IMG/VR virus record: IMGVR_UViG_2585427754_000003
Length of the DNA: 18,155 nucleotides
DNA from: a virus
Lineage: Duplodnaviria; Heunggongvirae; Uroviricota; Caudoviricetes
Reading direction: 5' to 3' (one strand)
The notes under the pieces are model-generated. The model did no database searches, was not told where the DNA came from, and was given only the letters and a program-made list of their open reading frames with translations. Position numbers and translations under genes: made by a program. Positions 625 through 14,971 of this stretch are shown one piece after another. Each line of letters opens with the position of its first letter. Positions within the stretch are counted from its first letter, which is position 1.

Positions 625-4331
<3,707 letters not shown>

Positions 4332-4351
<20 letters not shown>

Positions 4352-6689
4352 TCTCCCGCATATTGCCAGTATGGCCTTTAATGAGCCGCTGATGCTTGAA
4401 CCCGCCTATGCGCGGGTTTTCTTTTGTGCGCTTGCAGGCCAGCTGGGGATCAGCCGCCTGACGGATGCGGTGTCCGGTGACAGCCTGACTGCCGGAGAGG
4501 CACCCGCGACGCTGGCGTTATCCGGTAATGATGACGGGCCACGACAGGCCCGCAGTTATCAGGTCATGAACGGCATCGCCGTGCTGCCGGTGTCCGGCAC
4601 GCTGGTCAGCCGGACGCGGGCGCTGCAGCCGTACTCGGGGATGACCGGTTACAACGGCATTATCGCCCGTCTGCAACAGGCTGCCAGCGACCCGATGGTG
4701 GACGGCATTCTGCTCGATATGGACACGCCAGGCGGAATGGTGGCGGGGGCATTTGACTGCGCTGACATCATCGCCCGTGTGCGAGACATAAAACCGGTAT
4801 GGGCGCTGGCCAACGACATGAACTGCAGTGCAGGTCAGCTGCTTGCCAGTGCCGCCTCCCGGCGTCTGGTCACGCAGACCGCCCGGACAGGCTCCATCGG
4901 CGTCATGATGGCTCACAGTAATTACGGTGCTGCCCTGGAGAAACAGGGGGTGGAAATCACGCTGATTTACAGCGGCAGCCATAAGGTGGATGGCAATCCC
5001 TACAGCCATCTTCCGGATGACGTCCGGGAGACACTGCAGTCCCGGATGGACGCAACCCGCCAGATGTTTGCGCAGAAGGTGTCGGCATATACCGGCCTGT
5101 CTGTGCAGGCTGTGCTGGATACCGAGGCTGCAGTGTACAGCGGTCAGGAGGCCATTGATGTCGGACTGGCTGATGAACTTGTTAACAGCACCGATGCGAT
5201 CACCGTCATGCGTGATGCACTGGATGCGCGTAAATCCCGTCTCTCAGGAGGGCGAATGACCAAAGAGACTCAATCAACAACTGTTTCAGCCACTGCTTCG
5301 CAGACTGACGTTACTGACGTGGTGCCAGCGACGGAGGGCGAAAACGCCAGCGCGGCGCAGCCGGACGTGAACGCGCAGATCACCGCTGCGGTTGCGGCAG
5401 AAAACAGCCGCATTATGGGGATCCTCAACTGTGAGGAGGCTCACGGACGCGAAGAACAGGCCCGCGTGCTGGCAGAACCCCCCGGTATGACCGTGGAAAC
5501 GGCCCGCCGCATTCTGGCAGCTGCACCACAGAGTGCACAGGCGCGCAGTGACACTGCGCTGGATCGTCTGATGCAGGGGGCACCGGCACCGCTGGCTGCA
5601 GGTAACCCGGCATCCTTCATCACTAAAGGCCGCCTGTGCGGCTTTTTTTTACGGGATTTTTTTATGTCGATGTACACAACCGCCCAGCTGCTGGCGGCAA
5701 ATGAGAAGAAATTTAAGTTTGATCCGCTGTTTCTGCGTCTCTTTTTCCGTGAGAGCTATCCCTTCACCACGGAGAAAGTCTATCTCTCACAAATTCCGGG
5801 ACTGGTAAACATGGCGCTGTACGTTTCGCCGATTGTTTCCGGTGAGGTTATCCGCTCCCGTGGCGGCTCCACCTCTGAATTTACACCGGGATATGTCAAG
5901 CCGAAGCATGAGGTGAATCCGCAGATGACCCTGCGTCGCCTGCCGGATGAAGATCCGCAGAATCTGGCGGACCCGGCTTACCGCCGCCGTCGCATCATCA
6001 TGCAGAACATGCGAGACGAAGAGCTGGCCATTGCTCAGGTCGAAGAGATGCAGGCAGTTTCTGCTGTGCTTAAGGGCAAATACACCATGACCGGTGAAGC
6101 CTTCGATCCGGTTGAGGTGGATATGGGCCGCAGTGCGGCGAACAACATCACACAGTCCGGTGGTACGGAGTGGAGCAAGCGTGACAAGTCCACGTATGAC
6201 CCGACCGACGATATCGAAGCCTATGCGCTGAACGCCAGCGGAGTGGTGAATATCATCGTGTTTGATCCGAAAGGCTGGGCGCTGTTCCGTTCCTTCAAAG
6301 CCGTCAAGGAGAAGCTGGATACCCGTCGCGGCTCTAATTCCGAGCTGGAGACAGCGGTAAAAGACCTGGGCGAAGCGGTGTCCTATAAGGGGATGTATGG
6401 CGATACGGCGATCGTCGTGTATTCCGGACAGTACGTGGAAAACGACGTCAAAAAGAACTTCCTTCCGGACAACACGATGGTGCTGGGGAACACTCAGGCA
6501 CGCGGTCTGCGCACCTATGGCTGCATTCAGGATGCGGACGCACAGCGCGAAGGTATTAACGCCTCTGCCCGCTACCCGAAAAACTGGGTGACTACCGGCG
6601 ATCCGGCGCGTGAGTTCACCATGATTCAGTCAGCACCGCTGATGCTGCTGGCTGACCCTGATGCGTTCGTGTCCGTACAACTGGCGTAA
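4332..6689 (+). CDS. C: Prohead protease/scaffold C-Nu3 fused in frame to major capsid protein E (D gene deleted); ~785 codons from the C start
   Basis: C starts at GTG 4332 (MTAELRNLPHIASMAF...) behind SD ggagg at 4321-4325. The frame runs without a stop through the normal C/Nu3 C-terminal region (...AAGNPAS), then a 16-codon linker FITKGRLCGFFLRDFF read from former intergenic sequence, then the E ATG at 5664 and on to the E stop at 6689. The in-frame Nu3 start ATG is at 5046. The track ORF 4197..6689 is the same frame extended upstream into B. Confidence 0.75.
5625..5650 (+). promoter_or_regulatory. Terminator-like GC hairpin plus T-run immediately upstream of the E start, now inside the fusion reading frame
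   Basis: aaaggccgc ctgt gcggc followed by tttttttt: stem gccgc/gcggc (5629-5633 and 5638-5642), loop ctgt, then a T8 run (5643-5650). Confidence 0.45.
5664..6689 (+). CDS. E: Major capsid protein E (341 aa); also forms the C-terminal part of the C-Nu3-E fusion frame
   Basis: MSMYTTAQLLAANEKKFKFDPLFLRLFFRESYPF...DAFVSVQLA, 341 codons from ATG 5664, matching lambda gpE in length and almost all of its sequence. Confidence 0.9.
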   Translation: MSMYTTAQLLAANEKKFKFDPLFLRLFFRESYPFTTEKVYLSQIPGLVNMALYVSPIVSGEVIRSRGGSTSEFTPGYVKPKHEVNPQMTLRRLPDEDPQNLADPAYRRRRIIMQNMRDEELAIAQVEEMQAVSAVLKGKYTMTGEAFDPVEVDMGRSAANNITQSGGTEWSKRDKSTYDPTDDIEAYALNASGVVNIIVFDPKGWALFRSFKAVKEKLDTRRGSNSELETAVKDLGEAVSYKGMYGDTAIVVYSGQYVENDVKKNFLPDNTMVLGNTQARGLRTYGCIQDADAQREGINASARYPKNWVTTGDPAREFTMIQSAPLMLLADPDAFVSVQLA

Positions 6690-12629: not shown

Positions 12630-12955
12630 AAACCTTCCGCTGGAAAGTGAAACCCGGTATGGATGTGGCTTCGGCCCCTTCTGTAAGAAAGGTGCGCTTT
12701 GGTGATGGCTATTCCCAGCGAGCGCCTGCCGGGCTGAATGCCAACCTGAAAACGTACAGCGTGACGCTTTCTGTCCCCCGTGAGGAGGCCACGGTACTGG
12801 AGTCGTTTCTGGAAGAGCACGGGGGCTGGAAATCCTTTCTGTGGACGCCGCCTTATGAGTGGCGGCAGATAAAGGTGACCTGCGCAAAATGGTCGTCGCG
12901 GGTCAGTATGTTGCGTGTTGAGTTCAGCGCAGAGTTTGAACAGGTGGTGAACTGA
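12626..12955 (+). CDS. M: Tail tip protein M
   Basis: 109-aa ORF MKTFRWKVKPGMDVASAPSVRKVRFGDGYSQRAPAGLNANLKTYSVTL..., matches lambda gpM; ATGA overlap with H. Confidence 0.9.
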   Translation: MKTFRWKVKPGMDVASAPSVRKVRFGDGYSQRAPAGLNANLKTYSVTLSVPREEATVLESFLEEHGGWKSFLWTPPYEWRQIKVTCAKWSSRVSMLRVEFSAEFEQVVN

Positions 12956-13653
12956 TGCAGGATATCCGGCAGGAAACACTGAATGAATGCACCCGTGCGG
13001 AGCAGTCGGCCAGCGTGGTGCTATGGGAAATCGACCTGACAGAGGTCGGTGGAGAACGTTATTTTTTCTGTAATGAGCAGAACGAAAAAGGTGAGCCGGT
13101 CACCTGGCAGGGGCGACAGTATCAGCCGTATCCCATTCAGGGGAGTGGTTTCGAACTGAATGGCAAAGGCACCAGTACGCGCCCCACGCTGACGGTTTCT
13201 AACCTGTATGGCATGGTCACCGGGATGGCGGAAGATCTGCAGAGTCTGGTCGGCGGAACGGTGGTCCGGCGTAAGGTTTACGCCCGTTTTCTGGATGCGG
13301 TGAACTTCGTCAACGGAAACAGCGACGCCGATCCGGAGCAGGAGGTGATTAGCCGCTGGCGCATCGAGCAGTGCAGCGAATTGAGCGCGGTCAGTGCCTC
13401 CTTTGTACTGTCCACGCCGACTGAAACGGATGGCGCTGTTTTTCCGGGACGTATCATGCTGGCTAACACCTGCACCTGGACCTATCGCGGTGATGAGTGC
13501 GGTTATAACGGTCCGGCGGTCGCGGATGAATATGACCAGCCGACGTCCGATATCACGAAGGATAAATGCAGCAAATGCCTGAGCGGTTGTAAGTTCCGCA
13601 ATAACGTCGGCAACTTTGGCGGCTTCCTTTCCATTAACAAACTTTCGCAGTAA
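12955..13653 (+). CDS. L: Tail tip protein L
   Basis: 232-aa ORF MQDIRQETLNECTRAEQSASVVLWEIDLTEVGGERYFFCNEQNEKGEPVTWQG..., matches lambda gpL; TGATG overlap with M. Confidence 0.9.
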   Translation: MQDIRQETLNECTRAEQSASVVLWEIDLTEVGGERYFFCNEQNEKGEPVTWQGRQYQPYPIQGSGFELNGKGTSTRPTLTVSNLYGMVTGMAEDLQSLVGGTVVRRKVYARFLDAVNFVNGNSDADPEQEVISRWRIEQCSELSAVSASFVLSTPTETDGAVFPGRIMLANTCTWTYRGDECGYNGPAVADEYDQPTSDITKDKCSKCLSGCKFRNNVGNFGGFLSINKLSQ

Positions 13654-13658
13654 ATCCC

Positions 13659-14402
13659 ATGACACAGACAGAATCAGCGATTCTGGCGCACGCCCGGCGA
13701 TGTGCGCCAGCGGAGTCGTGCGGCTTCGTGGTAAGCACGCCGGAGGGGGAAAGATATTTCCCCTGCGTGAATATCTCCGGTGAGCCGGAGGCGTATTTCC
13801 GTATGTCGCCGGAAGACTGGCTGCAGGCAGAAATGCAGGGTGAGATTGTGGCGCTGGTCCACAGCCACCCCGGTGGTCTGCCCTGGCTGAGTGAGGCCGA
13901 CCGGCGGCTGCAGGTGCAGAGTGATTTGCCGTGGTGGCTGGTCTGCCGGGGGACGATTCATAAGTTCCGCTGTGTGCCGCATCTCACCGGGCGGCGCTTT
14001 GAACACGGGGTGACGGACTGTTACACGCTGTTCCGGGATGCTTATCATCTGGCGGGGATTGAGATGCCGGATTTTCATCGCGAGGATGACTGGTGGCGTC
14101 ACGGTCAGAATCTCTATCTGGATAATCTGGAGGCCACAGGGCTGTATCAGGTGCCGTTGTCAGCGGCGCAGCCGGGCGATGTGCTGCTGTGCTGTTTTGG
14201 TTCATCGGTGCCGAATCATGCCGCCATTTACTGTGGTGATGGCGAGCTGCTGCACCATATTCCTGAACAACTGAGCAAACGAGAGAGGTACACCGACAAA
14301 TGGCAGCGACGCACACACTCCCTCTGGCGTCACCGGGCATGGCACGCATCTGCCTTTACGGGGATTTACAACGATTTGGCCGCCGCATCGACCTTCGTGT
14401 GA
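13659..14402 (+). CDS. K: Tail tip assembly protein K (JAMM/MPN plus NlpC/P60 two-domain protein)
   Basis: 247-aa ORF starting 5 nt after the L stop. JAMM signature HSHPGGLPWLSEAD (HxH-x7-S-x2-D) with an upstream Glu in ...PAESCGFVV; C-terminal NlpC/P60-like region with Cys in DCYTLFRDAY and His in HAAIYCGDG. An alternative internal start at ATG 13803, preceded by ggagg, would give 199 aa. Confidence 0.8.
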   Translation: MTQTESAILAHARRCAPAESCGFVVSTPEGERYFPCVNISGEPEAYFRMSPEDWLQAEMQGEIVALVHSHPGGLPWLSEADRRLQVQSDLPWWLVCRGTIHKFRCVPHLTGRRFEHGVTDCYTLFRDAYHLAGIEMPDFHREDDWWRHGQNLYLDNLEATGLYQVPLSAAQPGDVLLCCFGSSVPNHAAIYCGDGELLHHIPEQLSKRERYTDKWQRRTHSLWRHRAWHASAFTGIYNDLAAASTFV

Positions 14403-14971
14403 AAACGGGGGCTGAAGCCATCCGCGCACTGGCCACACAGCTCCCGGCGTTTCGTCAGAAACTGAGCGACGGCTGGTATCAGGTACGGATTGCCGGGCAG
14501 GATGTCAGCACGTCCGGATTAACGGCGCAGTTACATGAGACTCTGCCTGATGGCGCTGTGATTCATATTGTTCCCAGAGTCGCCGGGGCCAAGTCAGGTG
14601 GCGTATTCCAGATTGTCCTGGGAGCAGCCGCCATTGCCGGATCATTCTTTACCGCCGGAGCCACCCTTGCAGCATGGGGGGCAGCCATTGGGGCCGGTGG
14701 TATGACCGGCATCCTGTTTTCTCTCGGTGCCAGTATGGTGCTCGGTGGTGTGGCGCAGATGCTTGCACCGAAAGCCAGAACTCCCCGTACACAGACAACG
14801 GATAACGGCAAACAGAACACCTATTTCTCCTCACTGGATAACATGGTTGCCCAGGGCAATGTTCTGCCTGTTCTGTACGGTGAAATGCGCGTGGGGTCAC
14901 GCGTGGTTTCTCAGGAGATCAGCACGGCAGACGAAGGGGATGGTGGTCAGGTTGTGGTGATTGGTCGCTGA
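14300..14971 (+). CDS. I: Tail tip assembly protein I
   Basis: 223-aa ORF MAATHTLPLASPGMARICLYGDLQRFGRRIDLRVKTGAEAIRALATQLPAF..., matches lambda gpI in length; overlaps the K 3' end by ~100 nt in another frame, as in lambda. Confidence 0.9.
   Translation: MAATHTLPLASPGMARICLYGDLQRFGRRIDLRVKTGAEAIRALATQLPAFRQKLSDGWYQVRIAGQDVSTSGLTAQLHETLPDGAVIHIVPRVAGAKSGGVFQIVLGAAAIAGSFFTAGATLAAWGAAIGAGGMTGILFSLGASMVLGGVAQMLAPKARTPRTQTTDNGKQNTYFSSLDNMVAQGNVLPVLYGEMRVGSRVVSQEISTADEGDGGQVVVIGR

Follow-up and report, generated by a model that had tools for sequence, protein, structure and literature searches.

Protein K (gpK) of bacteriophage lambda is required for tail assembly (PMC12617516). It was listed among the JAMM proteins in 2003, in a paper that gives the definition of the JAMM motif (PMC300881). 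The architecture in which a JAB domain is joined to an NlpC/P60 domain, and its linkage to the ubiquitin-like (Ub-like) N-terminal domain of gpI, were described by Anantharaman and Aravind (2003) and Iyer et al. (2006) (PMC1779556). In the 2006 study it was predicted that the JAB domain frees the Ub-like domain by a cut at its C-terminal glycine (PMC1779556). More recently, a 2025 conference summary of work in the Davidson laboratory reported that the Ub-like (Ubl) domain of gpI is cleaved by gpK, and that cleavage takes place only once gpI has joined other tail-tip proteins, so that the order of assembly is enforced (PMC12908700). Mass spectrometry found no gpK in virions, and only residues 135–223 of gpI are resolved in the virion tail tip (PMC10721106).

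Both domains of gpK have relatives among well-described enzymes. Pyrococcus furiosus JAMM1 (5LD9/5LDA), Haloferax desampylase, 2KKS and 2KCQ are stand-alone archaeal or bacterial JAMM/MPN+ enzymes with the complete E...HxH...S..D motif, as in K. They would also have their substrate logic in common with K, namely a cut after a ubiquitin-like beta-grasp domain; 5LDA is the complex of PfJAMM1 with the ubiquitin-like SAMP2. K differs from them in its fused NlpC/P60 domain, and identity is about 24%. K reached 29.7 bits with the NCBIfam desampylase model, whose cut-off is 130, and is thus not a desampylase equivalog. Rpn11, CSN5 and AMSH, the eukaryotic JAMM deubiquitinases, have the same catalytic motif and core fold as K (13–22% identity), but K is without their Ins-1, Ins-2 and MPN- partner subunit. 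On the C-terminal side, Escherichia coli MepS/Spr and Clostridioides difficile Acd33800 have the papain-like fold and the Cys-His-His triad found in K (17–21% identity). These two are cell-wall endopeptidases, whereas gpK is cytoplasmic and is not part of virions.

The stretch of DNA analysed here (the window; 18,155 nucleotides) comes from a lambda-type E. coli prophage, of which it is the left (morphogenetic) arm, with approximately 97–98% identity to lambda, 434 and related phages. Its K gene is the same gene as that of lambda gpK (NP_040598.1, annotated with 199 aa), in the same L-K-I-J order and with 97.6% nucleotide identity, and the annotated lambda protein corresponds to residues 49–247 of the window protein. 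The difference is a G at position 13793, which the window has in common with most resequenced lambda; the reference gpK is without residues 1–48, including Glu19. The window ORF is very probably the true full-length K, a 247-residue, 28-kDa non-virion tail-tip assembly protein with a JAMM/JAB and an NlpC/P60 domain, and the 199-residue K an annotation artefact. A 247-codon, two-domain K is already known, each of its elements being known or annotated elsewhere. Nor is the finding new: the role of K had been put forward as a prediction in 2006 (PMC1779556), and a 2025 talk reported it as shown by experiment (PMC12908700).

Extent and domains of K

The features of the locus are collected in Table 1. 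According to the window ORFs and Pfam, K is flanked upstream by L (Phage_tail_L) and downstream by I (Lambda_tail_I, Ub-like), which J follows. The L-K-I order was also found in five of five divergent enterobacterial loci and in annotated phages. An earlier note on this DNA, made from the letters alone, had proposed a 247-codon ORF beginning 5 nt after the L stop, and this was borne out. All four motifs that it had quoted (PAESCGFVV, HSHPGGLPWLSEAD, DCYTLFRDAY and HAAIYCGDG) were present where it had placed them. NCBI lists the exact 247-residue protein under the name 'C40 family peptidase [Escherichia coli]'; it occurs on 25 contigs, and its 90% cluster has 12,883 members. In lambda-type tail assembly proteins K (TAPK), JAB and NlpC/P60 domains are fused in a single polypeptide of approximately 230–260 aa. 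The window K has the identical two-domain architecture of the family described in 2006, beside a Ub-like TAPI (gpI) and TAPJ, and is a typical member.

Table 1. Features of the K locus in the window
Feature	Position	Strand	Remarks
Gene L (Phage_tail_L)	12955..13653	+	putative upstream partner in translational coupling; window ORFs and Pfam
L stop TAA (13651-13653) and spacer	13651..13658	+	5 nt (ATCCC) ahead of K ATG
Gene K, full-length ORF	13659..14402	+	247 codons and TGA; ATG start; predicted 28.2 kDa
Prok-JAB / JAMM (MPN+) metalloprotease domain	13665..13970	+	residues 3-104; Pfam PF14464
Glu19 codon	13713..13715	+	Glu of E-x(n)-HxH-x7-S-x2-D, in PAESCGFVV; upstream of classical start
SD-like GGAGG (13787-13791) and in-frame ATG (13803-13805, Met49)	13787..13805	+	classical 199-aa start
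G absent from J02459/NC_001416	13793	+	would come after reference position 14266; 10 nt before Met49
H68-S-H70-x7-S78-x2-D81	13860..13901	+	zinc-ligand part of JAMM motif; HSHPGGLPWLSEAD
NlpC/P60 (C40) papain-like domain	13989..14330	+	residues 111-224; Pfam PF00877
Cys121 (in DCYTLFRDAY)	14019-14021	+	NlpC/P60 triad
His187 (in HAAIYCGDG)	14217-14219	+	NlpC/P60 triad
His199	14253-14255	+	NlpC/P60 triad
Gene I (Lambda_tail_I)	14300..14971	+	other frame; covers last 103 nt of K
MTQTESAILAHAR			N-terminal peptides predicted for the 247-aa K form

The domain matches of K are far beyond chance. With the 247-residue form, the Pfam Prok-JAB profile (gathering score 25 bits) matched at 52.3 bits (E=6e-14) over positions 3–112 of 114. 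The 199-residue form gave a sub-threshold 23.3 bits and covered positions 63–112 of 114 only, and the 48-residue extension matched positions 3–41 on its own. The earlier note had named an MPN domain complete inside the 199-residue product as the case that would speak against it; the two domains were complete in the 247-residue form only. The JAMM motif consists of E19, H68-S69-H70, S78 and D81 with exact spacing. Glu19 is invariant in 14 of 14 close relatives and kept in 49 of 50 distant ones. In the same distant relatives H68, H70 and D81 are present in 50/50 each, and position 78 is Ser in 47/50 and Thr in the other three.

An AlphaFold2 model built from the alignment of the 50 distant relatives reached a pLDDT of 96.7 and a pTM of 0.91. 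Its first 48 residues contain a helix (3–15), two core strands (21–27 and 30–36) and the catalytic Glu19, as the earlier note had anticipated for the strands and the Glu. In a PDB search with a profile from these 50 relatives, the JAMM proteins 2KKS and 2KCQ aligned to K residues 3–102. Foldseek matched the N-terminal half of the model to PfJAMM1 5LD9/5LDA (TM 0.67, rmsd 2.5 A, 107 columns) and also to Rpn11, CSN5 and AMSH, all with a probability of 1.00. A structure search of BFVD returned nothing beyond the result of the PDB search. In NCBIfam, no K equivalog model was found, and the matches to desampylase and phage_NlpC_fam were all sub-threshold. Pfam, the profile alignment, AlphaFold2 and Foldseek thus all indicate that the 199-residue form would truncate the MPN fold and lose Glu19.

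The NLPC_P60 profile (gathering score 23 bits) was matched over its whole length, positions 1–105 of 105, at 49.2 bits (E=6e-13). Cys121 is present in 49 of the 50 distant relatives, and His187 and His199 in all 50. Foldseek matches of the C-terminal half were MepS/Spr, Acd33800 and 4HPE. The conserved triad makes a catalytic function of this domain in assembly probable. Its substrate is unlikely to be peptidoglycan, since gpK, a cytoplasmic protein, is missing from virions (PMC10721106). A role of the domain as a peptidoglycan hydrolase during infection was considered and rejected on the ground that gpK was not detected in virions.

The missing base in the lambda reference

In an alignment of 191 columns with the window, NC_001416, resequenced lambda, lambda imm434 and PhiR46, the sole difference was one G missing from the reference (GGAGGC-TATTTCC). 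Translation from the reference ATG at 14133 gives the same first 45 residues (MTQ...GEPEA), after which the frame shifts, and it stops after 76 codons. K in NC_001416 is annotated at 14276..14875 with 199 aa, and 14276 is the first usable ATG of the downstream frame. Since the missing G puts codons 1–45 out of frame, the long ORF is absent from J02459/NC_001416. The earlier note had taken the short start for the one usually annotated for lambda K, which is correct for NC_001416; it follows from the lack of the G in the reference and was not a choice of the annotators.

Most other lambda-type records that were checked carry the G, namely lambda from an MG1655 lysogen, imm434, Lambda_AGU and KT232076. 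Lambda_AGU, at 48,503 bp, is 1 bp longer than the reference. In DE3, presence of the G is implied by the length of the match. The documentation of a commercial supplier of lambda DNA presumably also places an inserted G at 14266. No exact match to a 37-nt probe lacking the G was found in 2.9 million IMG/VR contigs and 241 million metagenome records; a 38-nt probe with the G had at least 120 exact matches in each of these two collections.

Among the records checked, the G was otherwise missing only from OR474059 and OR974322. OR474059 is marked UNVERIFIED (construct), and OR974322, an isolate from a chicken cloacal swab, has coordinates identical to those of the reference. This suggests a reference-derived origin, and the two records may be reference-derived or reference-guided and would then not count as independent confirmation. 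The simplest reading of these comparisons is that the missing G is an error of the 1982 lambda sequence, a mutation specific to the sequenced clone being formally still an alternative. A literature search for an explicit correction of the K start codon returned only a table on the MutaMouse lambda-gt10 transgene, which lists 14266 C>CG with K uncommented (PMC6760142).

The truncated K model has been copied by homology from the G-less reference into other records. HK630 (NC_019723), Gifsy-1 (NC_010392) and lambda imm434 (OM418626) are annotated with 199 aa although the G is present. The lambda imm21 record also has a truncated 199-residue model, and in KT232076 K is annotated with 211 aa from a GTG at codon 37. 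Beneath the truncated annotations of HK630, Gifsy-1, lambda imm434 and KT232076 lies an intact long ORF of 245–247 codons. Some of the truncated-K records bear the note 'similar to phage lambda protein'. Ab initio or PGAP annotation gave 247 aa in PV340536 lambda, PhiR46, phage 21, Stx phages and the prophage of E. coli Z1002.

The value of these results is mainly curatorial. NC_001416/J02459, in wider use than any other phage reference, still contains the one-base error, which costs gpK its catalytic Glu and one third of the JAMM domain, and cloning, modelling or mutating 'lambda K' from the reference coordinates would yield a broken enzyme. In the PHROG database, phrog_7305 ('unknown function', 76 profile positions) was found to match K residues 1–76 (window 13659-13886). 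Its 76 positions equal the 76-codon ORF of the frameshifted reference. This family may consist of N-terminal K fragments seeded by the reference error.

Coding status of the extension and start of translation

Selection on the extension was estimated with ten relatives, comprising phage 21, Stx and other E. coli phages, Gifsy-1 and prophages of Citrobacter, Salmonella and Edwardsiella. These annotated phages and encoding contigs were used because the related IMG/VR loci were all at least 97% identical and therefore unsuitable for dN/dS. In the eight pairs with unsaturated dS, dN/dS was 0.06–0.32 for codons 2–48 and 0.09–0.22 for codons 49–213; the ratio was omitted for the two most distant pairs (L094 and L095), in which dS was saturated. 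Over 47 codons of the extension, 43 third positions varied, compared with 24 first and 23 second positions. This pattern of substitution indicates that the first 48 codons of K are under purifying selection.

The position of the start is also shared. The gene begins approximately 4–25 nt past the L stop in nine of the ten relatives, the exception being L095, where a GTG some 100 nt further downstream is called as the start. An exhaustive HMMER search identified 2,770 relatives of K, and the full-length ones (230–260 aa, 31–59% identity) align from approximately query residue 4–10. The N-termini of the 50 aligned relatives in this range of identity coincide with the long start, with a median of about 11 residues ahead of the H11 column compared with 10 in the window. 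Among 172 distinct related sequences from viral and metagenome contigs, 161 have the intact 247-codon ORF with an ATG at the post-L position. In contrast, codon 49 is ATT or ATC (Ile) in five of the ten closer relatives, and residue 49 is Met in six and Ile in 35 of the 50 distant ones; where it is Ile, initiation at this codon is impossible.

The long start of K has no Shine-Dalgarno (SD) sequence, its best anti-SD duplex being +0.7 kcal/mol; the corresponding duplexes of L, M, H and I range from -7 to -11 kcal/mol. The missing SD and the 5-nt gap after the L stop support translational coupling, and the long form of K is most likely translated by re-initiation of ribosomes that end at the L stop. 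The coupling suggested in the earlier note fits both features, the step itself being an inferred one. The internal ATG that it had described, with a good SD-like GGAGG, is present as codon 49. The GGAGG lies 11 nt upstream, and the anti-SD duplex is -9.5 kcal/mol, a range (-8 or below) reached by 7.5% of background windows.

The strength of this duplex gives some weight to a reading in which phages of the lambda group make two nested products, the 247-residue protein and a 199-residue one from Met49, in the manner of the nested genes C/Nu3 and S107/S105, the short form being an NlpC/P60 protein without JAB activity. Both the ATG and the GGAGG are retained in lambda, phage 21, Gifsy-1 and the window, and Iyer et al. 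noted phages with an NlpC/P60-only TAPK (PMC1779556). However, Met49 is replaced by Ile in the many relatives counted above, and the GGAGG persists in Stx phages that lack the ATG and can therefore be explained by the conserved E-P-E-A codons. The 11-nt spacing is also above the optimum. In addition, Pfam and the AlphaFold2 model suggest that only about half of the JAB domain would remain in the short form; the first helix and two strands would be lost, and misfolding is probable. With an unconserved ATG and a product that has only half an MPN domain, internal initiation is rated low, and nested products are improbable. Slightly less probable again is that the subgroup with GGAGG and ATG at codon 49 makes, next to full-length gpK, an N-terminally truncated 23-kDa isoform whose only functional domain is NlpC/P60, the ratio of the two tuning gpI processing against a second assembly step. 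The classical model, with a 199-residue protein only and 13659-13802 as an untranslated spacer open by chance, is what J02459/NC_001416, HK630, Gifsy-1 and lambda imm434 and imm21 have annotated and would make use of the good SD-like motif, but it is hardly credible, and appears effectively refuted by the comparative data: purifying selection in codons 2–48, the JAB match of the 48-residue segment alone, an invariant Glu19, the ORF intact in nearly all sequences, homologues with Ile at codon 49 that cannot initiate there, and short annotations that trace to a base-deficient reference.

Role of gpK, gene I and other features of the window

In the mechanism proposed for the 247-residue K, its JAB domain would act on gpI like a deubiquitinase, cutting the N-terminal Ub-like domain from the C-terminal domain, which would stay as a plug in the tail tip. 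The Lambda_tail_I (ubiquitin-like) domain of gpI covers residues 14–97 in Pfam and ends at VPRVAG-A, followed by KSGG. Within VPRxxGA, the G-A is invariant over ten relatives. This stretch is the likely region of the scissile site of gpI. A deubiquitinase-like enzyme and a ubiquitin-like domain in phage tail assembly are of interest, and have already been predicted and are under experimental study elsewhere. The earlier note had called the role of K incompletely understood; a role was predicted in 2006 and reported as experimentally shown in 2025.

A different main role of the JAB domain would be counter-defence, by removal of Bil-conjugated ubiquitin-like proteins from the central tail fibre gpJ. 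From lambda genetics, K is an essential tail gene on hosts without Bil, which argues against this. Counter-defence was speculated by Hor et al. for DUB domains in siphophage tail assembly (bioRxiv 10.1101/2023.09.04.556158), and K does work at the tail tip, the site of gpJ. However, K is required for tail assembly (PMC12617516) and strictly linked in cis to the Ubl-bearing gpI, and the activity reported is on gpI (PMC12908700). Counter-defence as the main role is accordingly quite unlikely, and an anti-Bil role of gpK would be at most secondary to the processing of gpI.

The start of gene I is ambiguous. The ATG at 14300, with an SD duplex of -9.3 kcal/mol, would yield a product of 223 aa. The Ub-like domain begins at Met14 (ATG 14339), from which one Salmonella relative is called. 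In PV340536 and PhiR46 gene I is annotated with 190 aa from a start that overlaps the K stop; part of the Ub-like domain would then be lost. The overlap of K and I (14300-14402) takes up the last 34 codons of K. There, dN/dS of K (0.10–0.41) is mostly above that of the gene body and dS is frequently reduced, a pattern that dual coding would produce. The C-terminal tail of K, FTGIxNDL, is conserved in enterobacterial relatives and missing from many distant homologues.

Elsewhere in the window, reference positions 5701-6085 (385 bp) are absent at a junction between 5614 and 5615. The loss comprises the last 12 codons of C/Nu3, all of the head-decoration gene D and 6 nt beyond. This junction was not found in any of the phage records, IMG/VR contigs or 5,426 complete E. 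coli genomes examined, and D is present in every one of them. The deletion may mark a defective prophage, have been engineered to remove D, or be an artefact of assembly. Across the junction, the C/Nu3 frame stays open through a 19-residue linker, SFITKGRLCGFFLRDFF, and runs on into E, the gene of the major capsid protein, and this read-through involves a run of eight T in the D-E spacer. The resulting ORF (4197..6689, + strand) carries both Peptidase_S49 and Phage_cap_E.
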